Positions 1,130-48,141 of a DNA stretch of 64,000 bases are shown here, piece by piece. The stretch's first letter is position 1. Each line of letters opens with the position of its first letter. Origin of the DNA: Candidatus Omnitrophota bacterium (lineage in GTDB: Bacteria > Omnitrophota > Gorgyraeia > Duberdicusellales > 4484-171); contig JBAWWL010000007.1 in the NCBI GenBank assembly GCA_037146775.1, positions 65,536 through 129,535 of the forward strand, given 5' to 3'. The translations under genes and the position numbers were made by a program. The notes under the pieces were generated by a model. It saw nothing but the letters and a program-made list of their open reading frames with translations. It had not been told where the DNA came from and searched no databases.

Positions 1130-1163
1130 TTGGTTCCGACCTCAAAATTAAAAATTAACCTAA

Positions 1164-1332
1164 TGTCCGACGATCCACTTGATGAATTCTTGGAATGCGA
1201 TTTGCAATGGGGGCAGATAGTATAAAGTGCTCGCATTGCGGCGCCAGCATCTCGCGTAGCTTGTTTTTCGACGACGATGACGAAGAAGTCGAATATCCAA
1301 AATGCAGCAAGAAAGTAGAAAATAATGACTAA
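1164..1332 (+). pseudogene. frameshifted copy of the 56-aa zinc-ribbon mini-gene
   Basis: nucleotide-level homologue of 6619..6789 and 46671..46841 (MSDDPLDEF...CSHCG...CSKK); an indel near 'gatttgcaatggggg' breaks the frame and stops translation after about 20 codons. Confidence 0.6.
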
Positions 1333-1406: not shown

Positions 1407-3392
1407 ATGCTTATTAAGAAGCTTTCGAATGATGAAATATTGAAGCGTAAAATTGTGCGATTGTTAAAGAAACTAAAGCTTGAGTCTTGTCGTAATAAGA
1501 AGATTAATGTTTATGTAAATAAGGTATGTGAGATTTTTAAATTATATGATGGAGAAAAGTTAGGCTTAGAAAAACTTTACGATTATGATGATATTGTAAA
1601 CTTTGCTGATTATTTAGAATCAATTTCAGGAGATTTATTGGGCATAACTAGAGGAAAAAAGAATAGGCCTGGTAATATTGGTAAAATGCTAATTTATTTA
1701 TTCGTCTTATTATACTCTAAAAAGGTTAGCAAAGGATTTAGTATATATATGGGAATGGTTTTTCCGGAACTTGCTCAAGTTCCAAAATTAAAACAGAATC
1801 AAATAAAGCATGCTATTGAATTAATTTTGGTGCTGAGTGAATTTCAAATAGAACTTAATGAGAAATATAAAAAAATAGATAACTTTTCAGTGGAGTTGTT
1901 TAGCGAGATGGCTGGGAAAAGTTTACGCTTTATCATCGAATATTTTATCCAAAACAACAGCTTTGAAGATTGGAAAAAGTATTTTACGATTAAAGAGAAA
2001 AACTGTATTTGCGAAAAAAACTTTCGAAGGTTGAAATTTATTTTGAATTTGCTTGCAACGGGAGCGCTATTGCAACAGAAGCATTATGGTTTACTTGGTT
2101 CAGAAGCTCAGAAGCCAGTCGAGTATTTTTCCAATGTTGCTTTATTGGCAAGAAGTATTTTAGAACTCAAGGACATTAATAGCGCAAGCATACTATATCA
2201 TTCCGTTCATGACGCTATAGCGAATCATAGGGTTTCAGTGGAAAATATAGCCGAATTAGCCACGCTGTGCATCGGTGGACCAGAAAGAGAACCCGTTAGG
2301 CAAATACTACGGATTTATTTTAATTCCAAGGAAAAAACTTTTCTTAGCCAAGTTTTCATGCCAGTTGTTAGCGGAGAACTTAAGATGGATGTTTTTTTAA
2401 ATTTCTTTGGTGATACGCTACTATGCCACTCAATATTAAAAGCAGAAGTTTTGCAGGATTTGCTGAGCTATCTCGAAGAGAAGGGGATATGTAACGAGTA
2501 TTATGATTATTTGTGCAATCTTCTAGGTAAGCAACCAAAGAGTTTATCTAATAATATTGGAATGATTCTGAAGGATTCTTGCAGCGATGAAGAGAAAAAC
2601 CGTAAATTATTTATGATAAAAGGTAATAGAAATATCATGAATTTTCTCGCTATATTTCAAGAGAGCGAATGTAAGAATTATGATGACCATTTTAGCAATA
2701 CCTATTTAGTGAGATGGTTGGCTAATCAACTGCTTAATGATTTTATCGAACCCTCTAGCGATTTCAAAAATTTGATTTTAGATAAAAATATCTTGAAAGT
2801 ATTCAAAGAAACTATAAAGATCAAAAGTATGGAAGCGACAGAACTGATTAAGGCCAATATACAAAAAGACACGGAAGTTCAAGATAAAAGCAGAACTATC
2901 GGATGTTTATCTAAAGAATTGGAAGCCTTAAAATTTAAAAATAATGAAATTTCTAAGGAAAATAACAATTATGTTGAACTTTTAAAACAATTCGAAGAAA
3001 AGTTAAATATGCAGGAAAATAGATATAGGGAAGATTTAGAAGCGCTGAAGAAAAGTTATCGTATAAACGAAAATAGAAATAGCGAAGCAGCCAGACATGC
3101 CTTATTGATGCGTCTAATAAGAATCTCAGATAGGTTTAATGCGATGAAGAATGATAAGGCGAATATAAATTTAAGTTCTATTATGGTTTTGCTTGATGAG
3201 GAACTTGCTAATGAAAATATAGAATCATTTGGCGAAATAGGAGAAGAAATAGTATTTGATGAAAAAATTCATACTCCGGTTGAGGTATCTCGTTCGGAAT
3301 ACTATCTAGGGAAGTATGTGGTTATCCTTGAAAGAGGTTACATACTTAAGAGTGGAGAAGTAATTAAAAAAGCTATTGTTAAGCCGTTATAG
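1407..3392 (+). CDS. large alpha-helical protein with a C-terminal GrpE-like nucleotide-exchange-factor domain
   Basis: C-terminal approx. 150 aa has a coiled-coil helix (ARHALLMRLIRISDRFNAMK) followed by 'GEEIVFDEKIHTPVEV...GKYVVILERGYILKSGEVIKKAIVKP', which matches the GrpE beta-domain signature (F-D-P/E..H.AV...V..v..GY.l...viR.A.V); approx. 500-aa N-terminal extension of unknown function; stop is 2 nt before the next gene start. Confidence 0.6.
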   Translation: MLIKKLSNDEILKRKIVRLLKKLKLESCRNKKINVYVNKVCEIFKLYDGEKLGLEKLYDYDDIVNFADYLESISGDLLGITRGKKNRPGNIGKMLIYLFVLLYSKKVSKGFSIYMGMVFPELAQVPKLKQNQIKHAIELILVLSEFQIELNEKYKKIDNFSVELFSEMAGKSLRFIIEYFIQNNSFEDWKKYFTIKEKNCICEKNFRRLKFILNLLATGALLQQKHYGLLGSEAQKPVEYFSNVALLARSILELKDINSASILYHSVHDAIANHRVSVENIAELATLCIGGPEREPVRQILRIYFNSKEKTFLSQVFMPVVSGELKMDVFLNFFGDTLLCHSILKAEVLQDLLSYLEEKGICNEYYDYLCNLLGKQPKSLSNNIGMILKDSCSDEEKNRKLFMIKGNRNIMNFLAIFQESECKNYDDHFSNTYLVRWLANQLLNDFIEPSSDFKNLILDKNILKVFKETIKIKSMEATELIKANIQKDTEVQDKSRTIGCLSKELEALKFKNNEISKENNNYVELLKQFEEKLNMQENRYREDLEALKKSYRINENRNSEAARHALLMRLIRISDRFNAMKNDKANINLSSIMVLLDEELANENIESFGEIGEEIVFDEKIHTPVEVSRSEYYLGKYVVILERGYILKSGEVIKKAIVKPL

Positions 3393-3394
3393 GT

Positions 3395-5377
3395 GTGATG
3401 TTGATGAAAAATATTTTCCTAGAATTATTGAAATGGGTAAAGAGTTTCTTAGATGGGGTGATAAAGTATCTAGAGAAACCCGCGGCAAATGCTGTTAGAT
3501 ATAATAATGATAGAATGAAGAAGGATTCGTTTCGGAAGGTAACGAACGAAAACGATATTGGTAGCGAGATTAATTCGGAGGTGGTAACGATGAGTTATCA
3601 TGAAAATAGAACAGAAGATATTGTTGGATTGAAAACTAATTTTGACCACGTCACGAAATATCCAGAAGCATCGAAAGTAAACACAAGTGTTTTAGAAAAT
3701 GAGAAAATATATAAAGCAATCGACTATGAGAATTATCTTTTTGGAATAGATCTCGGAACATCAAGTACCAAGATATCTTATAATAAGGGGAGAGGTGGAG
3801 AGCATACCGTGATTAAAATTGGTAAGAATGGTTTTGATTTCCAAATGCCATCGCTAGTATATTCTAAAAACGGGGAGATAAAAGTTGGTGAGGACATAGA
3901 GTTTTTTGAAGAGACAGAACGTAGTCGCCACATCAAGTTGAAGCTAGGGATGATAAATAAACTTTCCGAGCAAGAAAAGAGGGAAGTCTCAGATGTGCTC
4001 ACTGAAATATTTAAGGAGGTTATAAAAAGAGTATCCAACTCGAGAGAGTTTAGTGGTTTGGAACCAGGGAAAATGAGCGTTAATATAAGCACTTCCTCAA
4101 CTTTTGACCTTGAAGCGAGACAGTTGTTTCTTGCTTCTGCTCAAAGTGCAGGGCTAACTAAAGTTAGTTTTGACAACGTTGTAGAGGAACCTATCGCCGC
4201 AGGATTGGCATATATAGAGACATATAATCCCACCAGAGAGCCATTATATATTCTAGTTTGTGATTATGGAGGAGGAACATTCGATTGTAGCCTTATTTCT
4301 ATAAGGACAAGAGTTAAAGGGGAAAACGAAGTAAAGGAAGTGAATGTGTTGGCTACCGCAGGAGTATTAAACTGCGGAGGAGTCGCGATTGACTCTTTAT
4401 TATATAAGTATTTTTTGGCGCAACTCAATTTAGAAGAAAAATCGATAGATACATATAAGCGGTTGCGTTTATTAAAAGAGACAGAAGAAATAAAAAAGGC
4501 CCTTTCAACGAAGGAAATTGTCGAAAAGAATGTATCCGATATTATCAATAGTGATAATAAAAAAATAGTTTGCGAGAGGGCTGTTCTTGATAGAATAATT
4601 GACGAAACGCAAATCCTAAATAATTCATTAAAGGCTATCGAGTGGGTTATAAGAGTTGGCGTAAGTTCAAACAATCTGGAAATAGCAGATTATGATGTTT
4701 TTCATCCGAGTCTAGAAGAAAAGATTCCGTCTAACATCAAGATCTTATTTGTGGGCGGTACGAGCAATATACCATACATAAAGGAAATTATTCAAAGAAA
4801 ACTTAACTTGGCAGATAATAAAGTGATTACTAAAGATGAATTTCCTCGAGATCCTATAGAGGCAGTTGTATTAGGGGATTCATACAGCCGTGCCTTCGGG
4901 GGTATTAACTTGAATCGACCGCCATATCGAATTATATTAGAAATAAACGATAAAATGTATCAAATCCAGGAATGTTTCGAAGGGTTTCTTACTTACAAAA
5001 TGGGTCAGTCAAACAATAATTTTGCTAATTTAGCTATTAAAAGATGGCAAGATTATTTTAGTGGAAAAATAAGTGTTAGGGTTTATTTTTGTGATCATGC
5101 GAATCGACGTTATAAATTTTTTAAAGAACAAGGTGCTTATTGGCAATCAAAAGAGGAAGATAAATTTGATATACTAGAAGATAGGCAATGTAGAATAGAA
5201 ATAGTGCGGAGTATTGATGGTAAAATCATAGTTCGGGTAATTCCGCAAGACGGAGCGTCACGTAACATATGTAGTTATGCTTCTCCTTGGTGTACTGATA
5301 ACGACTTGTCTAATCTATCTACATGGTTTTTTTCGTATAATATTAATTGGCAAGGGAGAAATGATGAACCGGGATAA
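3395..5377 (+). CDS. divergent Hsp70-family (actin-like) ATPase lacking a canonical substrate-binding domain
   Basis: Hsp70 NBD motifs: FGIDLGTSSTKISY (phosphate 1), LVCDYGGGTFDCSLISI (phosphate 2), ILFVGGTSNIPYIKEII (adenosine/connect 2); non-Hsp70 N-terminal approx. 110 aa and C-terminal approx. 170 aa. Confidence 0.75.
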   Translation: MMLMKNIFLELLKWVKSFLDGVIKYLEKPAANAVRYNNDRMKKDSFRKVTNENDIGSEINSEVVTMSYHENRTEDIVGLKTNFDHVTKYPEASKVNTSVLENEKIYKAIDYENYLFGIDLGTSSTKISYNKGRGGEHTVIKIGKNGFDFQMPSLVYSKNGEIKVGEDIEFFEETERSRHIKLKLGMINKLSEQEKREVSDVLTEIFKEVIKRVSNSREFSGLEPGKMSVNISTSSTFDLEARQLFLASAQSAGLTKVSFDNVVEEPIAAGLAYIETYNPTREPLYILVCDYGGGTFDCSLISIRTRVKGENEVKEVNVLATAGVLNCGGVAIDSLLYKYFLAQLNLEEKSIDTYKRLRLLKETEEIKKALSTKEIVEKNVSDIINSDNKKIVCERAVLDRIIDETQILNNSLKAIEWVIRVGVSSNNLEIADYDVFHPSLEEKIPSNIKILFVGGTSNIPYIKEIIQRKLNLADNKVITKDEFPRDPIEAVVLGDSYSRAFGGINLNRPPYRIILEINDKMYQIQECFEGFLTYKMGQSNNNFANLAIKRWQDYFSGKISVRVYFCDHANRRYKFFKEQGAYWQSKEEDKFDILEDRQCRIEIVRSIDGKIIVRVIPQDGASRNICSYASPWCTDNDLSNLSTWFFSYNINWQGRNDEPG

Positions 5378-5675
5378 ATAAAATAACGGGGTTCAGGCTT
5401 TGAATATTGAATTTAATTGACAATAGGGAAAAAACGGGTCCTATTGAAGGTGGAAAAGAGGGGTATTCGAAATGGAAGATTAGACTGACAAAAGGATCAA
5501 GGCCAGAGCAAATATAAAATTAATTAGCTGCAATTATAAATATGAGAGAAACGGTGTCGCAAACTAAATGGCAGTCGTGATTATGTGGCCGGAAAGCAAG
5601 TGGAAAGGATAGGAAATATTTTAGTGTTAGCGTAATGAGATAAATTTTTAAATTATTAATTTCTAAATTACTTTT

Positions 5676-6575
5676 ATGGATTATCAGAGAATATTGAAGA
5701 AAGAATTGCTTGAAAAATTAAAAAGATATTTTGAATTAGGGGACCAGCTTTGTCGAATTCAGGCCGAAGATGGGTTTATAGCGTCTTTATCCCTCGAAGA
5801 AAAAGAAGTATTCTTCGATCCGCCCGAAGTAGAATGTTCTGATGAGGCCTTGCCGGGTGATAGGGAGGAAATACCGGAAGAAATAGAAAAGCAGTTTGAA
5901 GAGAGTAAGAAGACGCTCAATTTTACATTTTTAGGTATCCCTAATCAACATAAAAAGTTGCTTGATGAATTTCTTATTCTTCAGAATGAAATTAGTTGCT
6001 TGATGGTTGAATGTAAATATTATCCTCTCACAGGAATTGACGATAAAAGTTTTGAATTATTAAGGAGAAAAACTCCTGCCCAAGAGATTAACATTAGTGA
6101 AGCAATACCGTCAGAGGATAGTATAGAAAAGTTTCTCGAAGAGAGAATGATTACGGAAGCTGAAGAAGTAAAAAAGCGCATAAAAAGTATTGCTCCTTTA
6201 TTTTTAGATTTTCAAATAGATCCAACAACGCTTTATTTCTATCAACAAGTTTTACGGTGTTATACCTATGGAATGTTTGAAGCCAGTTGCGTTTTAGGTC
6301 GAGCGATCACGGAAACTATCGCAAAGAAGTATATTAGGTATAAAGATTATGGTCATTTACTGGTGGATAAGGATAAGGAAAATAAGACCATGTCTGTGCA
6401 GGCTATACTTAAAAATATTTTGGCCATCGACACAGATATTGTCTCACTGTACAGTAAAATTGGGAATATAGCCGATAATATATTACACAGAAAAGATATG
6501 GTTAATGAAGAGAGGACTTTTGAGGTAATAAAATTATTGCAAGAATTTTTGAAACAATTTCCAAAGTCAATATAA
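5676..6575 (+). CDS. hypothetical protein (third gene of the Hsp70-like/GrpE-like cassette)
   Basis: 299-aa ORF, acidic and helical; no known motifs. Confidence 0.5.
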   Translation: MDYQRILKKELLEKLKRYFELGDQLCRIQAEDGFIASLSLEEKEVFFDPPEVECSDEALPGDREEIPEEIEKQFEESKKTLNFTFLGIPNQHKKLLDEFLILQNEISCLMVECKYYPLTGIDDKSFELLRRKTPAQEINISEAIPSEDSIEKFLEERMITEAEEVKKRIKSIAPLFLDFQIDPTTLYFYQQVLRCYTYGMFEASCVLGRAITETIAKKYIRYKDYGHLLVDKDKENKTMSVQAILKNILAIDTDIVSLYSKIGNIADNILHRKDMVNEERTFEVIKLLQEFLKQFPKSI

Positions 6576-6618
6576 GCAACGGGAAAATGGATTAAGGCCT
6601 CGAAATTAGAAATTACCA

Positions 6619-6789
6619 ATGCCCGACGATCCGCTTGATGATTTTTTAGGATACGATTTCGCGATGGGGACAGATAGCGTAAAGTGCCCGCATTGCGGTC
6701 ATAGTATATCGCGCAGCCTCTTTTTCGACAACGATGACGACGAAATCACATGCCCCAAGTGCGGCAAGAAAGTAGAAGGTAATGAATAA
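6619..6789 (+). CDS. 56-aa zinc-ribbon mini-protein (MPDDPLDDFLGYDFAMGTDSVKCPHCGHSISRSLFFDNDDDEITCPKCGKKVEGNE)
   Basis: two CxxCG pairs; conserved upstream 'gaaattagaaattacca' context; paralogue intact at 46671..46841; below the 60-aa cutoff of the ORF track. Confidence 0.6.
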   Translation: MPDDPLDDFLGYDFAMGTDSVKCPHCGHSISRSLFFDNDDDEITCPKCGKKVEGNE

Positions 6790-8992: not shown

Positions 8993-10243
8993 ATGAAAGT
9001 AGAAAAAATCAAAATTAATCAAATCAATCCAGCACCATATAATCCAAGGGTTATGGAGAGTGTGGAATTCGAGAAACTTAAACAAAGCATAGTTACCTTT
9101 GGTTTTCAGGACCCGATAATATGGAATCAGGAAACTGGATACGCGGTTGGCGGAAACATGAGATTAAGAGCCTTGATTGACTTAGGCTTTAAAGAGGTAG
9201 ATGTAGTCGTAGTTAATTTATCGCTAGCAAAAGAAAAATTATTTAATATCGCTCTGAACAAAATCTCCGGGAAGTTTGATTTAGAAAAGCTAGCTCCTCT
9301 GCTAGAAGAGCTATCGAAAATGCCGGATATCAATTTTGAATTAAGCGGGTTCGACGTCCCCGAATTGTCAGAGATTCTCGATCGTTACAATGAAGCAAAA
9401 GAAGATGATTTTGATACAGAGAAAGTAGTTGAGTCAATTGTTGAGCCGGTCACTAGAAGAGGAGATATCATTGAGTTAGGGAATCACATCGTTCTCTGCG
9501 GTGATGCTTCTAACCCTGAAGATTTAAATCTGCTAATGGGTACTCATTCGGCAGACATGTTGGATGTAGATGTACCCTACAATGTTTCGTACATGGGAGG
9601 AGACCGCCCAAATTCGAATACCCGTCCGAAGAAATCGCGGCAATGGGAAAAAATCTATTCTGATGATATGCCACAGCCGGAATATGAAGCCTGGATGCGT
9701 AAAGTATTTGGAAACGTTAAAGAGCATCTTAAGCTAGGTGCCGCGGCATATTTTTGGCAAGGTCACCGCCAGATATCTCCAATGTATCAGATTTTGCTTG
9801 AGCTTGGGTTTCACATCTCTTCGATCATATGTTGGCTGAAGGAATCAGCGGCCATCTCATATGGCGACTACTCATTTAGGAGCGAGCATGCGCTGTATGG
9901 CTGGTTAGAGGGTGCGCCGCATTACTTCGCGGGAAAACCCGGCTGTAGCAATGTCTGGGAAGTCAATCGCGATCCGACTAAGCAATATATTCATCCAACC
10001 CAGAAACCAGTAGAATTAGCAGCCATAGCCATACGTAACAGTTCTAAAATAGGAGGCATTGTCTTAGATTGTTGTATCGGCGGAGGCGGTGTATTGATAG
10101 CCGCAGAAAGCCTTAATCGCAGATGTTTCGGTATGGAGATCTCCCCTAAGTATTGCGATGCTCTCACACTCCGCTATATCGCCTATGTGGGGCAAGATAA
10201 GGTTTCCGAGGAGATTAAGCGTAAATACTCGAAGGGGGTATAG
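8993..10243 (+). CDS. ParB-like nuclease domain fused to an N6-adenine/N4-cytosine DNA methyltransferase (phage or plasmid type)
   Basis: N-terminus 'INPAPYNPR...VGGNMRLRAL' (ParB/Srx fold); 'DVDVPYNVSY' (DPPY-like motif IV); 'HPTQKPVELAAIAI...VLDCCIGGGG' (MTase motif I/X). Confidence 0.85.
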   Translation: MKVEKIKINQINPAPYNPRVMESVEFEKLKQSIVTFGFQDPIIWNQETGYAVGGNMRLRALIDLGFKEVDVVVVNLSLAKEKLFNIALNKISGKFDLEKLAPLLEELSKMPDINFELSGFDVPELSEILDRYNEAKEDDFDTEKVVESIVEPVTRRGDIIELGNHIVLCGDASNPEDLNLLMGTHSADMLDVDVPYNVSYMGGDRPNSNTRPKKSRQWEKIYSDDMPQPEYEAWMRKVFGNVKEHLKLGAAAYFWQGHRQISPMYQILLELGFHISSIICWLKESAAISYGDYSFRSEHALYGWLEGAPHYFAGKPGCSNVWEVNRDPTKQYIHPTQKPVELAAIAIRNSSKIGGIVLDCCIGGGGVLIAAESLNRRCFGMEISPKYCDALTLRYIAYVGQDKVSEEIKRKYSKGV

Positions 10244-14437: not shown

Positions 14438-15928
14438 ATGAGAGACAAGACTAAAACCTTTCTTTCCAAGAGCAAGTACATGGAAGGGTTGCAATGTAAA
14501 AAACTCCTCTGGTATGAGTATAACCGGAAGGAATTGATTCCGCCGCCTGACCCAGCCAAACAAGCGATTTTTGATGAAGGTACAAAGATTGGAGAAATAG
14601 CCCGTACGCTTTTTCCTGGTGGCATGAAGCTTGAGCGTAATAAATTCCCCGAAGGCCACGATAAACAATCCCGCGAAGCATTAAAAGAACGCCGGCCGCT
14701 GTTTGAGGCCGGTTTTATTGCAAACAGGGGATATGCGTTGGCTGATGTTTTACTTCCGGTAGGCCGCAGCGCATGGGATCTCATTGAAGTTAAAAGCTCA
14801 GCCAGCGTTAAGGAAGAGCATATGCCGGATGTAGCATTCCAGCTTTATACTTATCGTAATGCCGGACTTGACGTGCGTTCCTGCTCTCTTATGTATATTA
14901 ACAACCAATATCTACGTAAAGGTAAGATTGATGCGGGTAAGCTTTTTGCAAAAGAAGATATCAGCGCGCAAGTTGAGGAGTTATTAGGTTATACCAAAAC
15001 CATGCTCCCAAAACTTCTAAGTATTATTGCTCAGTCGGATGAGCCGAAAGTAGAGATTGGCCCGCAGTGCGATAGTCCTTATGAATGCCCGCTTAAGGGG
15101 CATTGTTGGAAGCATTTACCTTTGCATAATAGCGTTTTTACTTTGTATCGCGGGAAAAAACTTGCATTTGAGCTGATGAAGAAGGGAGCCAAAGATTTAT
15201 TCGCAATTCCCAAAGGTACCATGCTTAATGATAAGCAGCAGATTCAACTTGCCTGTTGCGTAAAGAACGATTCTTATGTGGATCGGGATGGTTTGGCCGC
15301 ATTTCTTGAGAAGCTTGAGTATCCGCTGTATTTTCTTGATTTTGAAACGGTTTCTAACGCTGTGCCGTTATATGATCTGTCTCGGCCGTATGAGCAGATA
15401 CCGTTTCAATATTCGCTCCATGTGGTGGAGAAGATAGGTGCTAAGCCGAAGCATTATTCATTTATCGCTCCGGATACGACGGATCCTCGGCCACAGATTC
15501 TAAAGCAGTTAAAAGATTTATTGAAAGACAAAGGTTCAATTATTGCCTATAGCGCGCCGTTTGAAATTGGAGCTCTCGTGCGTTCGGCAGGAATTTATAC
15601 CGATTATATGGATTGGGTGGAAGGCATTAAGGAACGAGTGGTCGATCTGCTTACGCCATTTCGGGCATTTCATTATTATCATCCCAAGCAGGAGGGAAAT
15701 AATTCTTTAAAGGCAGTATTACCGGCTTTAACCGGAATCTCTTATAAAGAAATGGAAATTGCTGAAGGTGAGGTGGCAAGTAAAGAATATGCTCGGGTTA
15801 CTTTCTCGCAAGGTGTAAGTCCGGAAGAGCGCAAGAGGGTATATGAGGCGCTTGAGAAGTATTGCGGCCTTGATACCAGCGGGATGATTGATATATTGCA
15901 GGCGCTTAGGAAGGAAGCAGGGGGATAG
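14438..15928 (+). CDS. DUF2779 domain protein (predicted RecB-family / PD-(D/E)xK nuclease-like)
   Basis: N-terminus 'LSKSKYMEGLQCKKLLWYEY' matches the hallmark DUF2779 start (LSKS+F..GLQC.K+LW); conserved Cys residues in the C-terminal half. Confidence 0.65.
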   Translation: MRDKTKTFLSKSKYMEGLQCKKLLWYEYNRKELIPPPDPAKQAIFDEGTKIGEIARTLFPGGMKLERNKFPEGHDKQSREALKERRPLFEAGFIANRGYALADVLLPVGRSAWDLIEVKSSASVKEEHMPDVAFQLYTYRNAGLDVRSCSLMYINNQYLRKGKIDAGKLFAKEDISAQVEELLGYTKTMLPKLLSIIAQSDEPKVEIGPQCDSPYECPLKGHCWKHLPLHNSVFTLYRGKKLAFELMKKGAKDLFAIPKGTMLNDKQQIQLACCVKNDSYVDRDGLAAFLEKLEYPLYFLDFETVSNAVPLYDLSRPYEQIPFQYSLHVVEKIGAKPKHYSFIAPDTTDPRPQILKQLKDLLKDKGSIIAYSAPFEIGALVRSAGIYTDYMDWVEGIKERVVDLLTPFRAFHYYHPKQEGNNSLKAVLPALTGISYKEMEIAEGEVASKEYARVTFSQGVSPEERKRVYEALEKYCGLDTSGMIDILQALRKEAGG

Positions 15929-24715: not shown

Positions 24716-25516
24716 ATGATTGGCGCTATTGCAGGAGATATAATTGGTTCTATCTACGAATTTACGAATGTTAAAAGGACAGATTTTGATTTGTTCAGCA
24801 AGCACTCTCATTTTACCGACGATACTGTCCTGACCATCGCCGTAGCTGATTGTATTTTAAATGGAAAAGATTATGCAAAAACCATCAAAGAATATGGTAG
24901 GAGATATCCTGATAGAGGTTATGGCATTCGTTTTAAAGGATGGCTTTTGTTAGAGGAATCAGCGCCATACAATAGTTTCGGCAATGGTTCAGCGATGCGT
25001 GTAAGCCCTGTAGGATTTGCTTTTGATGATATTAACAAAGTGATGGAAGAGGCAAAAAAGAGCGCCGAGGTTACCCATAATCATCCGGAAGGCATAAAAG
25101 GCGCACAAGCGATAGCCATTGCGATATTTCTTGCTAAGAACGGTGAAAGAAAAGAGAATATCAAAGAGCATATTGAAAACACCTTTAATTATAATTTAAG
25201 GCAAACTTTAGAAGAAATTCGTTCAAGTTACCATTTTGACGAAACATGCCAGGGTACGGTCCCGCAGGCCATAACCGCATTCCTTGAATCCAATAGCTAC
25301 GAAGATGCTATACGAAAAGCAATCTCTATCGGCGGAGATAGCGATACAATTGCCTGTATTACCGGAGGTATCGCTGAGGCTTATTACAAAAACATTCCTG
25401 ATTATATTGCAAGAGAGTCGATGAAGCGCCTATCGCCAGAATTATTAAATACTGTGAATTTGTTTACTAAGACGTATAATTTTTCTAAGGTATCATTGTT
25501 GAATAGGTGGGGATGA
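24716..25516 (+). CDS. ADP-ribosylglycohydrolase family protein (DraG/ARH-like)
   Basis: 'MIGAIAGDIIGSIYEF', 'HFTDDTVLTIAVADCIL', 'GNGSAMRVSPVG', 'IGGDSDTIACITGGIAEAYY' are conserved ARH motifs. Confidence 0.85.
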   Translation: MIGAIAGDIIGSIYEFTNVKRTDFDLFSKHSHFTDDTVLTIAVADCILNGKDYAKTIKEYGRRYPDRGYGIRFKGWLLLEESAPYNSFGNGSAMRVSPVGFAFDDINKVMEEAKKSAEVTHNHPEGIKGAQAIAIAIFLAKNGERKENIKEHIENTFNYNLRQTLEEIRSSYHFDETCQGTVPQAITAFLESNSYEDAIRKAISIGGDSDTIACITGGIAEAYYKNIPDYIARESMKRLSPELLNTVNLFTKTYNFSKVSLLNRWG

Positions 25517-32421: not shown

Positions 32422-33365
32422 TGAAAAAAACATTTATTTTCCTTACTTTTATTTTTATTGCTCACCTTTCTTTTGCCTATGAAGATAGTTACTATTCAAC
32501 GCTTTACGAAAAGGCGTCTCAAGCCATACAAAAAGGTAACGAAGAGGATGCTGATTTTTACCTAGCGCGATATATGGGGACGAGTTTCTTAGATAAAGAA
32601 TCCAAAAAAGATATTACCGATCTTTCCCCCCTATTTAATTCATATAAGGTTTCGAAACCCACTGCTTTTATTTCTGGAAGATATTCAGCTGATTTTATTG
32701 ATTGGTTCATCCAGAGTTCTATTGCCCAGTGGGGAGGTGACGATGACGAAGATATAGACCCGAAAACCCATTCTTTTGGTATAGTTTCAAGTGAAAGTAA
32801 CGTATATTTTGCCACAGTTATAGGAAGTCCTTATCTTGAGGGATGGAGTATTATCAAAGATAAAGATATGAAAAAAACAGTTCTTGTCTTAATAGATTAT
32901 AGGCAGAAACCATATCTTGTTGTTGGGAAACATGAAAAAGGTATCCCAAAGAAACTTCTTGAGAAGAAAGAATTTGATTTAGATGAATTTCATCTACAGT
33001 ATGTGTGGCCCCCAGAGTTCCATGATTTAGACAAGGATGGAAAAGATGAATTGTGGGTACGATACAATAAAGCATGGGCGGATGGTTTCTCGCAGGAGTT
33101 AGTTATTTATAAGATAAAAGACAATGGATTGGAGTTGATCAAGAAGTTTGAAGGCGAGGCCGAAGGCATAGCAAGAAGATTGGATGGTAATAAAGTAGAA
33201 GTGGGTCGCGGATTTACTGATAAGAACGCTGGTCATCTAGAATTTGATCAGCATCATCTAGAAACCTGGGAATATAAAAATGGTAATTTTGTAAAGACTT
33301 CCGAAAGGAATGTTCCGCATCTTCTTTGGTCGGATGAATGGAAAAAGTACTACTTTAATAAATAA
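32421..33365 (+). CDS. secreted hypothetical protein
   Basis: signal peptide (FIFLTFIFIAHLSFA). Confidence 0.5.
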   Translation: MKKTFIFLTFIFIAHLSFAYEDSYYSTLYEKASQAIQKGNEEDADFYLARYMGTSFLDKESKKDITDLSPLFNSYKVSKPTAFISGRYSADFIDWFIQSSIAQWGGDDDEDIDPKTHSFGIVSSESNVYFATVIGSPYLEGWSIIKDKDMKKTVLVLIDYRQKPYLVVGKHEKGIPKKLLEKKEFDLDEFHLQYVWPPEFHDLDKDGKDELWVRYNKAWADGFSQELVIYKIKDNGLELIKKFEGEAEGIARRLDGNKVEVGRGFTDKNAGHLEFDQHHLETWEYKNGNFVKTSERNVPHLLWSDEWKKYYFNK

Positions 33366-34791
33366 CTTCGGAGGATCTATGAAAAAGTTAGCAATTATAT
33401 CGCTATTAGTTTTATTACCTTTTGGATTATTTGCATATTCTATGTCAACAACCTATGAGGCAGTTGAGCAACTTGGCTATTTGGATAAACAGCTCCGTGC
33501 AATTATGACTGATGTAGAATTGTGGCTTGGGTGGGGGTTTGAAGAAAAAGATTTGGGTAAAAAAGTTATGGAATCAGCCCTTAAAGATTTATCTGATTTA
33601 AAGAAAGAAATCTCAGCCTTTGAGGTTACGGGAGAGTTAACCAGTATCAAGGATTTGGAATTGGGAGCAATAAATCGTCTTGAGAAAATTTATAGTGATA
33701 TTTATAAGAAAGACGAAAAGCAGATAGGTGAAGAGTTTAAGACATTCCATGAGTTTAGCAAGAAGTACCTTGTTGATTTTGAAGCAGCCGTAAAAAAATA
33801 TGCCCGTCAACCCAAGTTTCCCAAAGACTTTAATCCTATTTCGGAAGAGCTAGCCCTTGCGGGAAGTTCGCAGGATAAGGAAGCTTACCAAAAAGCTATT
33901 GATAAAATGCAACAAAGAAAGTTTAAGGACGCAGCTCTATTATTAAAGGATTTATTATCAAAATATCACGAAACTGCTTTTGGAGATTGCATTAAGGTCA
34001 GATTGTCTGATTGTTGGCTGAACGAAGACAATGACTCTAAGGACATATTCACAACAGAAGAGCAAGACAAAGGGGTCAAATTTCTTAAAGACATTATAGA
34101 CAGCAACAGATATTCACCAGTTCTATATAATACATTTCTTCGCTGGCGTACAAAAGAACAAGAAATGAATCACGGAATGTCTAATATGTCTGATATACCT
34201 AACAAGGAATACAATAAGAAGCGATGGTTGCTAGTTCAAGTTATACGGCGCTACTTAAAGAGTAATCCTAGTGATAAGTGGGCCATGAATCAGATCAATC
34301 TACTCATTAGCATCCCTAATATTGAACGCGGTGGTACTTACGGTAACTATAATCTCAATTACTACGGAATGTTGTATATGGATTTAGAAAAGGAAGAGAA
34401 AAAACCTTCCGCAGAATCGCGATTTAAGAAAGTGGTTGATTCTCAAGGTAATGCTTATGAGGTTGCTGAGAATGGGGATATTTACTCTGAAGGAGCACCC
34501 AAGCCAGGTCGCCAGCCTGCTTCAGTAGAGAATATTGACTATTATTTTAATGAGTCATTACAGTTGGAAGTGAATGGTCATATCCCTGAAGCATTTACGA
34601 TGTATGCGGAAATCCTATCTCTGCCCGAGGCAAATGAATCAGTTAAAACTTTGCAACGTGGAATTAGGCTAAGGATAGAAAGATTATATAATAGTGATGG
34701 TCAGATGAAGAAAAAGCTTTTAATGTACTTTGATATAAAAGAATTGAAAGATGGTAGCCTTAAAATTAACCCGAAATCTAATCCTAAATAA
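33310..34791 (+). CDS. secreted hypothetical protein (likely true start approx. 33379, MKKLAIISLL...)
   Basis: signal peptide follows the internal Met with RBS 'ggagg'. Confidence 0.5.
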   Translation: MFRIFFGRMNGKSTTLINNFGGSMKKLAIISLLVLLPFGLFAYSMSTTYEAVEQLGYLDKQLRAIMTDVELWLGWGFEEKDLGKKVMESALKDLSDLKKEISAFEVTGELTSIKDLELGAINRLEKIYSDIYKKDEKQIGEEFKTFHEFSKKYLVDFEAAVKKYARQPKFPKDFNPISEELALAGSSQDKEAYQKAIDKMQQRKFKDAALLLKDLLSKYHETAFGDCIKVRLSDCWLNEDNDSKDIFTTEEQDKGVKFLKDIIDSNRYSPVLYNTFLRWRTKEQEMNHGMSNMSDIPNKEYNKKRWLLVQVIRRYLKSNPSDKWAMNQINLLISIPNIERGGTYGNYNLNYYGMLYMDLEKEEKKPSAESRFKKVVDSQGNAYEVAENGDIYSEGAPKPGRQPASVENIDYYFNESLQLEVNGHIPEAFTMYAEILSLPEANESVKTLQRGIRLRIERLYNSDGQMKKKLLMYFDIKELKDGSLKINPKSNPK

Positions 34792-40197: not shown

Positions 40198-42735
40198 ATG
40201 GTTGGCAAGACCTGGCCCCATTATTTCATATTGACAGGTTTTTTCCCTCAAGAAAAGGAGACAAAAGCTATGAAACAAACTGTCGCAGCATTTTTAGGAG
40301 TCATCCTTGTTTGTTTTTATCTCTTGCCATTGAACGGGCAAGAGATCGCAGATTCAAACTCTAACAAATATGAAAAGTTTCCGGAACGCGTGCGTAAGAT
40401 CGCTGAGGGAATGGAAAAACTAGGACTTAGTCCGAAAATTGATTTATCTCCGAAAATCGGAGAAGGAAGCGAAGGATATATTATTAATGCGAAAATTGGA
40501 GAAGAAAAGCCCGGAGAAAAATTTACTAATATCACTGTTTATGTCGCGACTGAAGATAGTATTCAACAATTTCTTGTTTTTCCGTTGGTGGGTTTCGTTG
40601 TTGAACCGCGTGAGGAGTTGACGCCTGCGCCGCTCTGGACAGGGAAGATAGCTGATCGTTTTAAAGGTGATGGACTGGGCACAACTTATGGTGCGTATAT
40701 CACTCCCGGAGTAGGCGGCCACATAATCGGAGTGGCCAATGCGTACGCCATGAAAAACGATGTAATAGTGAGTGTCAGAATGGAGCGGTGCGATACCAAA
40801 CCACGTTCATATTACTCAGGTATCTCAGAATTTGACGGAGAGAAGAGAGCCATTGAACTTTCGGCCGGGTTAAAAGATGACAGCAGAAACTGGATAGATG
40901 CTTTAGTTAAGATCATTGATGGTTTAGGCGGGGTGAAAATTTCTGTTTTTGATGCCAATCCGCAGTACAATGACAAGTTTGATTTTACTGACAAAGCGGT
41001 GCTTAAGGATTTCCCCAGTAAGGAAGCATATTTGCAGAAGGCTGCTTACGTTGTATCTGTTGCAAACACGAAAAGGTCCGGCGCTGCCGCGGATGGTGTC
41101 AGCCTGCTCCTCTTACTTGCATCTGTCGACTACGAAGGTATAGCCACTTTCACGCTGGAGGGGGATGATTCGCCGGGCACCATCCATCCAATCGGTACTG
41201 ATTTTGACATGAAATTGCGCGAGAAGAAAATTAGAACTCCTACGCTCGTGTTAGAGAGAGGACCGGATTCAAAGCAGTATTGGGCCGCTGTTCTCTATCG
41301 TCCGCCGGACAATTTTGGCCGCGGGGACGGTACAAGAGAAGTTCGTGTGACGCTCTTATTGGAGAATACAGGGGGCAAAAAAATAGAGGACAATAAAGAT
41401 TCTAGTTCAAAACGAGGGGAGTGCATGATACGGCTCATACGTCCGCCGGTTGTCCTTGTCCATGGCACGTTTGATGCGCCGATACCGTGTTGGGACACCC
41501 CGGATCAACATAGCAGCTTTACAATGAAAAAACGGCTGGAACAGGAAGGATTCAGACCGTTTATGGTGGACTGGGTGGAAACGAACGGATATAAAGATCC
41601 AAGCGCGTTTATCTCAAACTGCGAGACTGTGTGGAAAAATAATGGAGGGATCCACGAGGCACTGGAGACTTTTCGTAAGGACAACTTTGCGGCCACACAG
41701 GCGGATCTTGTCTGTCACAGCCAGGGCGGTGTGATCGCACGCAGGTACGTGAAGGGGACGGTATCGGAGACGAAGCTTGCCGACGACGATTACCATTATA
41801 CTAATCCGCGCGAGTGCTCACGCGGCGCGTGCTACTATCATCGTCTTAATAACTTCGCGAAAGGCGACATCCACCGTCTTATTACGATCAGTGCTACGCA
41901 TATGGGAAGCGACATTTGCTCTCTGTTAAATGTCTTTATCCAGCTTCGCAGTGAGGGGATGAAGTTAGCATCATGGGACTCGCTTTGCGCAAAACTTGCC
42001 CTTTTAGGCGGCGGTTATCAGGGAAACTGCACGAGTGATTGGATGGTTGTCAATTTTGCCTATTATACGAAAGAGTTTATCAGGCGGATGGGAAATGGTG
42101 AGCTTACAGGCGCGTATAAGGATCAGATCCCTGGTAGTCCGGCACTTCAGGCCATCGGAAAAACACTAGTTCCTTCGCATGCCATCGCGTGTACCGCTGA
42201 GGATAAAGATTTGATGGATTTTGATGGATCATACGAGGACCGAATGGAAACGATCTGGGAAGGTTCCAGTCGCGGCCTCTTGCTGGAGGCGTTTCGCAAG
42301 CTTGGGCAGAATGAAGATGCTGATGACCTTGCGCGAAGAGTGGACGAACAGGAGAGGGCGGAAGGCCTTGCGGCGGAAATTGTCAAGCTTAAGGTTATGC
42401 GGACGCATAGGATGGCGAATGCCAGAAGATTTCGTGCGGCAGTTTTTGGCAACAACCCGAATGACTGCACTGTCAGGAGGGAAAGCTCGCTGGGAGGGTT
42501 ACCAGAGCAATATACGACAACGATCCCCAACATCCTTCATGGTTACGCGCCGTGGTATAGCGCTGTGCAAGAACGCGTTGTACAGCTCCTTAAAGATGAC
42601 GGCGGCAAGTTTTGTTCAGCCGGGTTTCCGCAGGCCGGTGTGATGCCGCGCAATATCCAGTATATAGGACCATCTGTCATTGGCCCGGAGCTTGAAAAAG
42701 GTGTTGATCAAGGTTCTTTGCCTGTGGGACAGTAA
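40198..42735 (+). CDS. large secreted protein with a C-terminal alpha/beta-hydrolase (lipase/esterase-like) domain
   Basis: signal peptide after the internal Met (MKQTVAAFLGVILVCFYLLPLNG, RBS 'aaggag'); 'PPVVLVHGTFD' and nucleophile elbow 'LVCHSQGGVIARRY' (GxSxG); GC approx. 50 %. Confidence 0.6.
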   Translation: MVGKTWPHYFILTGFFPQEKETKAMKQTVAAFLGVILVCFYLLPLNGQEIADSNSNKYEKFPERVRKIAEGMEKLGLSPKIDLSPKIGEGSEGYIINAKIGEEKPGEKFTNITVYVATEDSIQQFLVFPLVGFVVEPREELTPAPLWTGKIADRFKGDGLGTTYGAYITPGVGGHIIGVANAYAMKNDVIVSVRMERCDTKPRSYYSGISEFDGEKRAIELSAGLKDDSRNWIDALVKIIDGLGGVKISVFDANPQYNDKFDFTDKAVLKDFPSKEAYLQKAAYVVSVANTKRSGAAADGVSLLLLLASVDYEGIATFTLEGDDSPGTIHPIGTDFDMKLREKKIRTPTLVLERGPDSKQYWAAVLYRPPDNFGRGDGTREVRVTLLLENTGGKKIEDNKDSSSKRGECMIRLIRPPVVLVHGTFDAPIPCWDTPDQHSSFTMKKRLEQEGFRPFMVDWVETNGYKDPSAFISNCETVWKNNGGIHEALETFRKDNFAATQADLVCHSQGGVIARRYVKGTVSETKLADDDYHYTNPRECSRGACYYHRLNNFAKGDIHRLITISATHMGSDICSLLNVFIQLRSEGMKLASWDSLCAKLALLGGGYQGNCTSDWMVVNFAYYTKEFIRRMGNGELTGAYKDQIPGSPALQAIGKTLVPSHAIACTAEDKDLMDFDGSYEDRMETIWEGSSRGLLLEAFRKLGQNEDADDLARRVDEQERAEGLAAEIVKLKVMRTHRMANARRFRAAVFGNNPNDCTVRRESSLGGLPEQYTTTIPNILHGYAPWYSAVQERVVQLLKDDGGKFCSAGFPQAGVMPRNIQYIGPSVIGPELEKGVDQGSLPVGQ

Positions 42736-46670: not shown

Positions 46671-46841
46671 ATGTCCGACGATCCGATTGATGAATTTTTA
46701 GGATACGATTTTGCGATGGGGGCAGATAGTATAAAGTGCCCGCATCGCGGTCATGCTATATCACGCAGTTTGTTTTTCGACAACGATGCCGAAGCAATCG
46801 AATGCCCTAAATGTGGTGGAAAAGTAGAAAATAATGAATAA
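46671..46841 (+). CDS. 56-aa zinc-ribbon mini-protein (MSDDPIDEFLGYDFAMGADSIKCPHRGHAISRSLFFDNDAEAIECPKCGGKVENNE)
   Basis: paralogue of 6619..6789 (approx. 85 % nt identity); the 127-aa track ORF 46458..46841 is an unsupported N-terminal extension through a GC-rich repeat. Confidence 0.6.
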   Translation: MSDDPIDEFLGYDFAMGADSIKCPHRGHAISRSLFFDNDAEAIECPKCGGKVENNE

Positions 46842-46896: not shown

Positions 46897-48141
46897 ATGA
46901 AAAACTTTTTTAAAGTATTCCTAGCCATTTTCCTTATGGCGGCATTTTCATACACAAGCTACGAAATTTCCAGATTATCCAATCGTCTTCAAAGGATAGA
47001 AAATAAACTTGGCGGTTCCAAGAGGATATCTTGTAACGAAAAAGATACTGTAAAAAGAGTACGCCAATCAGTGGTTCGCATCGTCGGCGGTGACGGTGAA
47101 GGATCGGGTTTTGCGATCAAAAAGGATGGTTTCATCTTAACTAATTTTCACGTCATTAGTACCGAGCCGAGTCCGAAGGTTATATTACCGGATGATACTT
47201 TCGAAACAGCCCAGGTTATCATGGCAGATAAGGAAGCAGACCTTGCTATTCTTAAGATCCGAAGAGACCTTCCGGTGGTGAGGTTTGTGCGTCTTAACGA
47301 GTTAAGCGCCGCAGAAGAACTCTTAGCTATAGGATATCCACTCGGGGGCGACTTGCCTGGTGAATCATTCGTTGTCCGTGGATCATTTTCAAGGCCTACC
47401 ACAAACAAGAAAGATGGTATGCGGTATGTTTTAACTGATATGACCATGGTTTCTGGGCTAAGCGGTGGTCCGATGGTAAATATCTGCGGAGAAGTGGTTG
47501 GAATTAACACCGCAGGGTTATCACCAGGAGGGATAGGTATAGCCATAGCATCTGATTCGATATTTGAGAGGTGCCGCCAGATGTTTGCCTCAAAAAACCC
47601 ACTCAAAGACGTAACGAAAATAGTTTTTGAACCTAATAAGAACGCACTTGAGGCTGTCAGGGCTTTTTATAATTATCTTAAAGTTCGGAGTATGGAAAAA
47701 GCTTTTGAGCTTTTGTCCGATAACTTTGTCATGGGATATAGCTTTGAGCATTGGGTGCGTGGATACCGGCCACTTCTCGATAATACACTTATCTTGATTA
47801 AGCCTGACAAAGAAATAGCTAACAGAATAAACATTAAGCTATCTACCAAAGACTTGATTGATGATGAGATTGTATGTAAATATTTCGAAGGTTATTGGGA
47901 TGTCCGGCAGGTAAGCGGAAAATGGCTGCTCTGGGAACCAAGTATCAGGGAAGTTAAAGAGCCTGGCGAGGACTGGTTTGTAGACCAGGATCGTAAAAAA
48001 GAAATAGAGGAATTTATAAAAACCCACGAAGATTTTAAGGAATATTGGCCTACGATGTATGAAATATGGCAGAAACCTGGTAACGAAAGCCTAAGCCTGC
48101 AGGAACTTTATGATAAAGCCAAAGAAAGAGAAAATAAGTAA
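46897..48141 (+). CDS. trypsin-like serine protease (S1 family) with N-terminal membrane anchor/signal and a C-terminal extra domain
   Basis: 'VVRIVGGDGEGSGFAI...ILTNFHVI' (His); 'ADLAILKI' (Asp); 'GLSGGPMVN' (GDSGGP-like Ser). Confidence 0.8.
   Translation: MKNFFKVFLAIFLMAAFSYTSYEISRLSNRLQRIENKLGGSKRISCNEKDTVKRVRQSVVRIVGGDGEGSGFAIKKDGFILTNFHVISTEPSPKVILPDDTFETAQVIMADKEADLAILKIRRDLPVVRFVRLNELSAAEELLAIGYPLGGDLPGESFVVRGSFSRPTTNKKDGMRYVLTDMTMVSGLSGGPMVNICGEVVGINTAGLSPGGIGIAIASDSIFERCRQMFASKNPLKDVTKIVFEPNKNALEAVRAFYNYLKVRSMEKAFELLSDNFVMGYSFEHWVRGYRPLLDNTLILIKPDKEIANRINIKLSTKDLIDDEIVCKYFEGYWDVRQVSGKWLLWEPSIREVKEPGEDWFVDQDRKKEIEEFIKTHEDFKEYWPTMYEIWQKPGNESLSLQELYDKAKERENK

Follow-up and report, generated by a model that had tools for sequence, protein, structure and literature searches.

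In the DnaK-GrpE cycle the exchange factor opens the nucleotide-binding domain (NBD) of the Hsp70 protein and ADP is released, and to our knowledge the prevailing picture of Hsp70 machines is almost wholly that of folding engines targeted by J-proteins. Similar parts have also been described in other settings. According to Kaur et al. 2020 (PMC7159879), about 14% of the GAP1-N2 GTPase-centric systems contain HSP70 and GrpE genes, along with FNIII-DnaJ or TPR proteins; Hsp70-like units of the NBD and substrate-binding domain (SBD) type are found with HEAT-like repeats (CnuD) in Type III CoCoNuTs (Bell et al. 2024, PMC11090510), and the DnaK and DnaJ proteins of the "moraphages" and other phages are canonical and recently derived from their hosts (PMC12619734). 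The recruitment of Hsp70 and GrpE parts into conflict systems is, in other words, not a new idea. Here we describe two adjacent genes, an Hsp70-family ATPase without a lid and a partner that carries a GrpE-like domain behind a large helical region, in a stretch of 64,000 nucleotides (positions 65,536 to 129,535 of contig JBAWWL010000007.1, assembly GCA_037146775.1; hereafter the window, with positions counted from its first nucleotide). The two very probably make up a dedicated pair of an Hsp70 with a nucleotide-exchange factor (NEF) of its own.

An initial annotation, made from the sequence alone, had placed three open reading frames (ORFs) in this part of the window, at 1407-3392 (gene 1), 3395-5377 (gene 2) and 5676-6575 (gene 3). 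All three were confirmed, and the motifs that it quoted were all found in the translations (GIDLGTSSTKISY, DYGGGTFDCSLI, FVGGTSNIPYIKEI, LLMRLIRISDRFNAMK and GEEIVFDEKIHTPVEV...VVILERGYILKSGEVIKKAIVKP). These genes and the features within and between them lie on the plus strand. Gene 1 (661 aa, called from the ORF and its homologs) is a fusion of a solenoid, a coiled coil and a GrpE domain and the putative exchange partner of gene 2; a Shine-Dalgarno (SD) motif, AAGGAG, can be read at 1392-1397, 9 nt 5' of its ATG. Its TAG stop codon (3390-3392) is crossed by an SD-like AGGTG (3391-3395), a putative coupling signal for gene 2 that was likewise read from the sequence. For gene 2 there are three alternative in-frame starts, GTG 3395, ATG 3398 and ATG 3404, and the spacing between the two genes is accordingly 2-11 nt. 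The last of these, located 8 nt 3' of the AGGTG, appears the more likely start; it gives a product of 657 aa (660 aa from GTG 3395), as in the NCBI entry P0001 ("Hsp70 family protein"), which matches gene 2 at 100%. The short gap and the SD-like motif over the stop codon strongly support the translational coupling of genes 1 and 2 that had been proposed. Promoter and terminator scans gave background level only. In the automatic NCBI annotation the two products are named "nucleotide exchange factor GrpE" and "Hsp70 family protein".

By both sequence and structure comparison, the fold of gene 2 is that of an actin-like ATPase, closest to the NBD of Hsp70 and Hsp110. The Pfam HSP70 profile matches it with an E-value of 2e-18, only over profile positions 138-362 of 599, and the NBD as a whole covers residues 114-505 (3734-4909). 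When the window protein and its relatives were aligned to E. coli DnaK, equivalents of D8, T11, K70, E171, D194, T199, D201 and G341/G342 were all present in gene 2 and in both clades of the family (see below). Given that all the catalytic and nucleotide-binding residues compared are conserved, an active ATPase is to be expected. Profile and structure tests thus bear out the Hsp70 NBD recognized at first sight, and they also set the protein apart from an ordinary DnaK fragment, since the NCBIfam DnaK and HscA models score it at about 70 bits, with equivalog cutoffs of 620-822 (all of them above 600). The PADLOC profile PDC-M61B gives a partial match (1.3e-10, residues 260-482) that is confined to lobe II of the NBD.

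On either side of the NBD, gene 2 departs from DnaK. The interdomain linker is shortened to NLNRPP (4907-4924), which in the alignment replaces the VKDVLLLDVTP of E. coli DnaK and in which R508 and P509 are invariant across both clades. Beyond it lies a beta-rich, family-specific domain with a tail (residues 512-660, 4928-5374), carrying conserved W632 and W644 and no helical lid. A family profile of this C-terminal region found the DnaK SBD only at an hhalign E-value of 0.7 and nothing in Pfam or PDB, and there are no lid helices in the AlphaFold2 (AF2) model, so that the reported absence of a canonical SBD and lid stands for the sequence and, as regards the lid, for the model. The extensions had been described less accurately. 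The one at the C-terminus measures about 155 aa rather than 170, and the N-terminal one, thought to be unrelated, is actually a conserved amphipathic helix (residues 2-49, 3398-3541; predicted local distance difference test score (pLDDT) 74-90), after which comes a disordered linker that varies (residues 50-110, 3542-3724; pLDDT below 50 at residues 46-103). In the relatives P0002-P0005 the helix is kept and the adjoining linker varies. Alignments and profiles together strongly support gene 2 as an Hsp70-type ATPase that has no lid and is predicted to be catalytically competent.

The claim that gene 1 ends in a GrpE-like region required more sensitive comparisons. Its match to the Pfam GrpE family (PF01025) spans nearly the whole profile (positions 8-162 of 165) with an E-value of 6.4e-6 and 26.4 bits for a cutoff of 25.8; taken alone this is marginal, and it recurs in three of the six members of the gene 1 family. 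An exhaustive phmmer search with gene 1 against 1.84 billion representatives returned 7 relatives and no canonical GrpE, which indicates that the relationship is remote and that family profiles are needed to see it. A profile of eight tails (the last ~122 aa) searched against 177,635 PDB sequences had two GrpE structures as its top matches, 4ani_A (5.3e-4) and 8gb3_E (0.43), and once tails of the second clade were included (ten in total) the same two improved to 1.7e-7 and 8.2e-5, with the next match at 0.21. In direct hhalign comparison with E. coli GrpE the E-value went likewise from 1.6e-3 to 1.8e-5 (probability 78%) upon addition of the second clade, and the alignment then took in the bundle helices in addition to the beta-domain. 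A signal that strengthens with independent, divergent sequences is what would be expected of true homology. We consider it strongly supported that the tail of gene 1 is a true GrpE homolog and that a helical-repeat domain of ~450 aa and a long coiled coil come before it.

The predicted secondary structure fits the same layout. In the AF2 model of gene 1, built with 7 sequences (pLDDT 70, predicted template-modelling score (pTM) 0.47), helices 460-482 and 488-553 form a very long helix or coiled coil (residues 460-553, 2784-3065) that would be the equivalent of an extended GrpE dimerisation stalk. They are followed by helices 560-582 and 590-602 and by strands between 605 and 660, an order that fits the long helix, two helices and beta-domain of GrpE. 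The GrpE-homologous region as delimited by Pfam, the PDB profiles, hhalign and AF2 comprises residues 510-659 (2934-3383), which contain the end of the stalk, the two bundle helices and the beta-domain. The rest of the protein is of another kind. Residues 8-446 (1428-2744; pLDDT ~60-85) are modelled as an all-alpha helical-repeat region, a proposed adaptor or sensor, that had no match in Pfam, PHROG, PADLOC or NCBIfam. Foldseek with the whole gene 1 model gave no GrpE in the top 50 and only solenoid matches, which were weak and of HEAT/ARM type (PP2A-A, 1.6e-3, template-modelling (TM) scores of about 0.16-0.2), and the full-length family profile found only coiled coils in PDB (geminin and ZapB-type), with GrpE emerging when the tail was used alone. 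Given these weak matches, the N-terminal domain is best called an uncharacterised helical repeat.

The pair belongs to a tiny family. Close homologs of gene 2 (38-53% identity) amount to seven clusters among 5.8 billion, and a word-index homolog search with gene 1, either alone or as a family alignment of 6 sequences, returned only the query, the homologs of gene 1 used here being taken from the loci themselves or from the exhaustive HMMER search. No gene 1 was found in 50,697 reference phages, 2.9 million viral contigs or 185,579 species-representative genomes, and a profile scan of metagenomes recovered only loci that were already known. The corresponding scans for gene 2 added one partial copy from Planctomycetia and one unrelated Haliangiales paralog amid flagellar genes. 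There are also Hsp70-like relatives of 830 aa (P0018), whose genomic context is unrelated.

Wherever upstream DNA exists, a full-length homolog of gene 1 is located directly upstream of the gene 2 homolog (loci L001, L002/L003, L005 and L006-8). Gene 1 of the window is 28% identical over 650 aa to its counterpart in L001 and 35% to that in L002/L003. The remaining loci are incomplete in one way or another: the contig of L004 starts within the GrpE tail and the adjacent gene 2 is split into two ORFs (270-818 and 915-2285), by either pseudogenization or an assembly error; L009 has an N-terminally truncated gene 2 and no gene 1; L016, of the same lineage as L009, begins inside gene 2, so that the upstream gene is not visible; and L010 holds a distant homolog of gene 1 at the contig end. 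A sister clade of Hsp70-like proteins (P0008, P0013; ~23% identity) shows the same two-gene arrangement, with a 647-aa ORF that overlaps a 561-aa Hsp70 in L011/L012 and a 732-aa ORF before a 555-aa Hsp70 in L020. The C-terminal part of the partner consists in both L011 and L020 of a coiled coil and a GrpE-like tail with the pattern ...G(E)xVxFD(P/R)xxHE...GY...V(I/L)(S/R)R(G/A)xV. That genes 1 and 2 form a conserved, very rare two-gene unit, adjacent in two very divergent clades, is strongly supported, and it is the conserved adjacency together with the coupling that supports a putative function of gene 1 as a dimeric exchange factor that would bind the NBD of gene 2 and speed up the release of ADP. 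A J-domain was found neither in the 64-kb window, in line with the initial remark that no DnaJ is present, nor in any of the loci.

Gene 3 (299 aa), which had been counted as part of the same unit, does not share this conservation. It starts after a gap of 298 bp, no SD motif was seen upstream of it, it has no homolog in any other locus, and family searches in Pfam, PHROG, PADLOC and NCBIfam gave no match. The expected co-location in other genomes holds for full-length genes 1 and 2, at other metagenomic loci, and not for gene 3, which we regard as adjacent cargo outside the conserved module. Reading its C-terminus as HEPN/DUF4145-like, an idea that came from inspection of the sequence, was dropped as no profile supports it. 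On the other side of the pair, just upstream of it, a 158-aa ORF (653-1129) has a weak match (1.6e-5, residues 4-113) to PDC-S02, which PADLOC lists as a candidate for defence by a single gene, and none in Pfam or NCBIfam.

What the pair may be doing is suggested mostly by the company that it keeps elsewhere. In L001 it is flanked by DndE, a cysteine desulfurase, an HNH protein (4.4e-22), a PbeC/DndD-like protein (1.8e-46) and NERD+UvrD (4.6e-45). In L020, of the other clade, there are genes for a C5 methylase and a NERD helicase (3e-39), for the DISARM protein DrmD (3.8e-127) and for a PD-(D/E)xK restriction endonuclease. In L002 an rve integrase is found upstream of the pair, and the gene immediately downstream is a PDC-S68 candidate of full length (1314 bits). 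Homologous pairs are thus repeatedly found beside known defence genes, in a sample that is small. The defence function guessed at in the initial annotation gains backing from these islands, if by guilt by association, and with Dnd/Pbe, HNH, NERD-UvrD, DISARM and PDC-S68 genes around the homologous pairs, a role in conflict (anti-phage or exclusion) is the most likely one; we hold it to be somewhat probable.

Some of these neighbours deserve description in their own right. The PDC-S68 member of L002/L003 is a helicase of 1204 aa (L002 5133-8747), followed by an RNase T-like exonuclease. A NERD-UvrD helicase-nuclease flanks the pair in both clades (L001 11580-13508 and L020 1786-3435; PADLOC "NERD+UvrD" and "RTasNERD-Hel"). 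The only other recurring neighbour is an NYN_YacP gene, a predicted RNase, at three independent places, in L001 (6390-6875), L006-8 (L006 3634-4173) and L009 (2901-3407); the copies are 30-44% identical to each other, gene order varies and an HTH_17 gene is often near. It may be an optional effector or simply a co-travelling gene, and in the window none of the ORFs on either side of the cassette was seen to be of NYN type.

The setting in the window is a different one. The contig of the source record is 155 kb long and was assigned by binning to Candidatus Omnitrophota. The window codes for a TerL (phrog_38, 1.2e-92) with ~32% identity to the TerL of Mu-like Pseudomonas phages. Directly upstream of it and of the small-terminase region is a ParB-like N-terminal domain fused to a DNA methyltransferase (8993-10243; phrog_498, 6.2e-112), which, going by its methyltransferase family, is a possible phage anti-restriction methylase. 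There are in addition a Dda-like helicase and several phage-only PHROGs. Throughout the window (1-64000) nearly all ORFs of at least 110 aa are on the plus strand, the six on the minus strand all overlapping plus-strand ORFs, every 2-kb bin has a positive GC skew (0.03-0.27), GC content varies in blocks from 33% to 47%, and no tRNA genes were found. Many large ORFs are without PHROG matches (e.g. 14438-15928, 33310-34791, 40198-42735 and 52501-54519). All this points to a very divergent large phage that was binned into an Omnitrophota metagenome-assembled genome. The accessory region that holds the pair comes before the genes for the ParB-methyltransferase and the terminase, and this is the only phage-borne copy that we have seen. 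Further along, an ADP-ribosylglycohydrolase (24716-25516; phrog_6572, 2.9e-61) may be a counter-defence or host-takeover enzyme.

A scheme can be proposed in which genes 1 and 2 would be a self-contained Hsp70 machine that works without a J-protein and moves between genomes as a pair. Gene 1 would dimerise through its coiled coil, as GrpE does, and its beta-domain would open the nucleotide cleft of gene 2 for the exchange of ADP for ATP. Its helical-repeat domain might take over from the J-protein in the choice of client, as a sensor or adaptor for a specific target protein, and the beta-domain and N-terminal helix of gene 2 could hold the client or tether the complex. As no effector domain is obvious in the core, the output may be remodelling or sequestration itself, or may go via variable neighbours. 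Most likely a protein of an invader or of the host would be remodelled or sequestered at the expense of ATP, with nearby nucleases in some loci (NYN_YacP, NERD-helicase) as optional effectors that may take part. On this phage the pair would be superinfection-exclusion cargo against competitors. The parts of this scheme do not all carry the same weight. As an overall explanation, a J-protein-independent two-gene Hsp70 machine that is a mobile accessory module with a role in conflict stands a little below an even chance. It is only tentatively that we see in the pair a stand-alone anti-phage or exclusion system, a NEF-gated Hsp70 with its GrpE domain tethered to a helical-repeat sensor, that is common to bacterial defence islands and to a phage using it against competitors, and the specific mechanism of sensing and remodelling is doubtful.

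Several observations weigh against such a scheme. No domain of a toxin or nuclease is found in the two-gene core, gene 1 is without a model in PADLOC and gene 2 is matched there just partially (PDC-M61B), and the connection to defence is guilt by association, drawn from only 3-4 loci with usable flanks. The gene 1 model is of moderate quality at the above pLDDT of 70 and pTM of 0.47, and the solenoid was called from matches with low TM scores. R183 of E. coli GrpE, a residue in contact with DnaK, is not conserved at the aligned position of gene 1 in the hhalign comparison. Finally, the sole phage-borne copy is the one described here, which leaves room for a pro-phage role.

For this last reason two other explanations remain live. 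The pair could be a chaperone that benefits the phage itself, an auxiliary folding or remodelling device for replication or virion assembly, or one that re-tunes host proteostasis. Its place in the genome of a phage, where the genes for the ParB-methyltransferase and the terminase come just downstream, would suit such a function, and there are precedents in the DnaK and DnaJ homologs of large phages (PMC12619734), the J-domain proteins of jumbo phages (PMC7824862) and weak Hsp70 matches in huge-phage records. These known phage chaperones are, however, canonical and recently acquired from hosts, while the pair is extremely divergent and far below the DnaK and HscA cutoffs. Moreover, the searches of reference phages and viral contigs described above turned up no gene 1, and all the other loci are in non-structural, defence-type neighbourhoods. 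We regard this explanation as improbable.

Alternatively, the Hsp70 and its NEF might put an immune protein of the host out of action, for instance a chaperone-dependent sensor that is unfolded or titrated, in which case the bacterial copies would be prophage or mobile-element cargo with the same role. Host chaperones such as DnaJ and SecB do take part in defence sensing (PMC12169576; 10.1101/2024.02.24.581848), HTH_17 and rve genes near some of the copies suggest mobile elements, and the phage accessory region is next to the possibly anti-restriction ParB-methyltransferase. The bacterial copies are nonetheless found between bona fide defence genes (DrmD, PbeC/DndD, NERD-UvrD, PDC-S68) and not in recognisable prophages, and no known anti-defence family was matched, which makes a counter-defence module an improbable reading as well.

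Much less can be said for the remaining possibilities. Given its actin-like fold, gene 2 could be imagined as a cytoskeletal or segregation ATPase of the ParM, MreB or Alp7A type, with gene 1 as a coiled-coil adaptor for the positioning of phage or plasmid DNA. This is very unlikely, as the best matches in structure and sequence are Hsp70 and Hsp110, the Hsp70 catalytic residues are all conserved (including the equivalent of K70), the partner bears a GrpE domain, and no centromere-like repeat was seen near the cassette. We know of no role of GrpE domains with actin-like filaments.

It is just as hard to believe that the pair is a detached fragment of a GAP1-N2 GTPase-centric system or of a Type III CoCoNuT, the remainder lying outside the sampled DNA. 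Both systems do have Hsp70-like components, GrpE is present in the former, and CnuD of the latter joins Hsp70-like domains to HEAT-like repeats. Against this, no GTPase, GAP1, FNIII, DnaJ or McrB/McrC-type gene was present within up to ~9 kb (to the contig ends) in L001, L002, L004, L011 and L020, or in the 64-kb window, and the Walker A-like motifs of CnuD are degenerate where the ATPase of gene 2 is intact. The Pfam matches of every called gene in L001-L012 and L020, and direct scans of the window neighbours, likewise included no TRAFAC-clade GTPase, GAP1 or FNIII-repeat gene. Least credible of all is that the genes are relic cargo decaying without a current role, for although there are damaged relatives (the split gene 2 of L004 and the truncated one of L009) and a pseudogene among the flanking zinc-ribbon copies, both ORFs are intact over ~650 aa in the window, L001, L002, L005, L006, L011 and L020 despite 25-50% divergence, and conservation is highest in the catalytic residues and in the GrpE tail.

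The zinc-ribbon genes that bracket the cassette had been seen as a sign of its mobility. The first copy (1163-1332, plus strand; detected by tblastn, blastn and alignment) is decayed, with a 1-nt deletion and the loss of one Cys ligand, and the second (6619-6789, plus strand) is an intact ORF of 56 aa that matches Pfam zinc-ribbon families (e.g. DUF7575, 1.2e-7). That they are copies of one another, with the frameshifted one upstream, was confirmed as the initial annotation held; they belong to a direct repeat of 194 bp with 80% identity (1140-1332 and 6598-6789). The repeat extends only over the double-CxxC mini-gene and ~25 nt upstream of it, and a third copy (46671-46838), in which one Cys is lost and the motif reads CPHRGH, is found 40 kb away, before an HtrA-like protease. 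Given this limited extent, the remote third copy and the decay of copies, the repeats were rejected as the ends of a mobile cassette. The copies represent paralogy within the phage, which does not count as evidence for att or insertion sequence ends.

Each zinc-ribbon copy is directly upstream of a different accessory set, namely the Hsp70/GrpE cassette, a small ORF resembling a signal peptide with a 226-aa ORF, and the HtrA-like protease. The latter, right after the third copy, is a trypsin-fold serine protease of the HtrA/DegP type with 414 aa (46897-48141; NCBIfam degP_htrA_DO, 7.5e-31). Gene 2 homologs have trypsin-like proteases in their vicinity, too, at 5764-6528 of L011 (minus strand) and at 1778-3286 of L016 (with an N-terminal zinc ribbon), which may be a coincidence.

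How, then, does the pair compare with what has been described? With the housekeeping DnaK-GrpE(-DnaJ) system it shares an Hsp70 NBD with the full catalytic set and a partner homologous to the stalk, bundle and beta-domain of GrpE, and one would expect ADP to be released in the same manner, by an exchange factor that opens the NBD. It differs in that the NBD is only ~20-26% identical to that of DnaK, the linker is shortened, an extra N-terminal helix and linker are present, and neither a sequence-detectable SBD nor an alpha-helical lid follows. GrpE here is the last ~150 aa of a 661-aa protein, there is no J-protein, and the module is rare, mobile and found in defence islands or on a phage. The canonical DnaK and DnaJ of phages are similar insofar as an Hsp70-family gene is carried by a large phage genome, whereas gene 2 is deeply divergent and lid-less, has a dedicated GrpE-fusion partner and has its relatives among bacterial defence-island genes. 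Component B of the PADLOC candidate PDC-M61 also has an Hsp70-type NBD, although the match is partial (lobe II only) and gene 1 matches no PADLOC model, PDC-M61 partners included; in the literature searched, the name PDC-M61 came up only in a phage host-range GWAS. The initial expectation that PADLOC would be silent was therefore right for gene 1 (PADLOC-DB v2) and not for gene 2.

The closest parallels are with predicted conflict systems. The GAP1-N2 systems likewise use a non-housekeeping HSP70 and GrpE, and some of their HSP70 proteins are NBD-only, without a peptide-binding domain (PMC7159879). The DO-type GTPase(s) and the GAP1 that define them are absent here and in the homologous loci, as is their FNIII-repeat protein with its fused DnaJ or TPR, and a GrpE fused to a solenoid and a coiled coil was not described for them (PMC7159879). 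CnuD/CnuCD of the CoCoNuTs combine an Hsp70-like unit with HEAT-like helical repeats and coiled coils, also in a defence context (PMC11090510). There, however, the repeats are fused to the Hsp70-like protein itself and not to a GrpE partner, the Walker A-like motifs are degenerate and those of gene 2 intact, and the partners of Type III are an McrB-like NxD GTPase and a DUF2357 McrC-like protein, with no McrB/McrC-type gene in any of our loci; GrpE is never mentioned in PMC11090510. Without the defining partners of either system, membership in both fails. In the literature searched we found no description of GrpE with a solenoid of ~450 aa and a coiled coil, paired with a lid-less Hsp70 and without GTPase or J-protein. 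The statement that no described system has this composition is consequently right for the exact architecture, and too broad in view of the predicted HSP70 and GrpE sets (PMC7159879) and of the Hsp70 and HEAT-like combination of CnuD (PMC11090510). Given its presence in bacterial defence islands elsewhere, the pair is probably an undescribed chaperone-derived conflict system.

The significance of the pair is tempered by the tiny size of the family, by a role assigned by association from a handful of loci and by domain identities that were already contained in the automatic NCBI names. If the proposed architecture is true, the exchange factor and not a J-protein would bear the large, fast-evolving targeting domain, and the Hsp70 would have shed its lid, in a module that keeps company with restriction, DISARM and Dnd-type genes and is also carried by a phage. 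Such an architecture is surprising and readily tested by experiment, and even as a chaperone serving the phage it would be an unusual, highly derived viral Hsp70 system. Should the defence reading be correct, a mechanism based on the chaperone cycle would join the known immune strategies, a compact two-gene system would be available for seeing how nucleotide exchange alone gates the action of an Hsp70, and the computational predictions of Hsp70 and GrpE recruitment into conflict systems would be extended.

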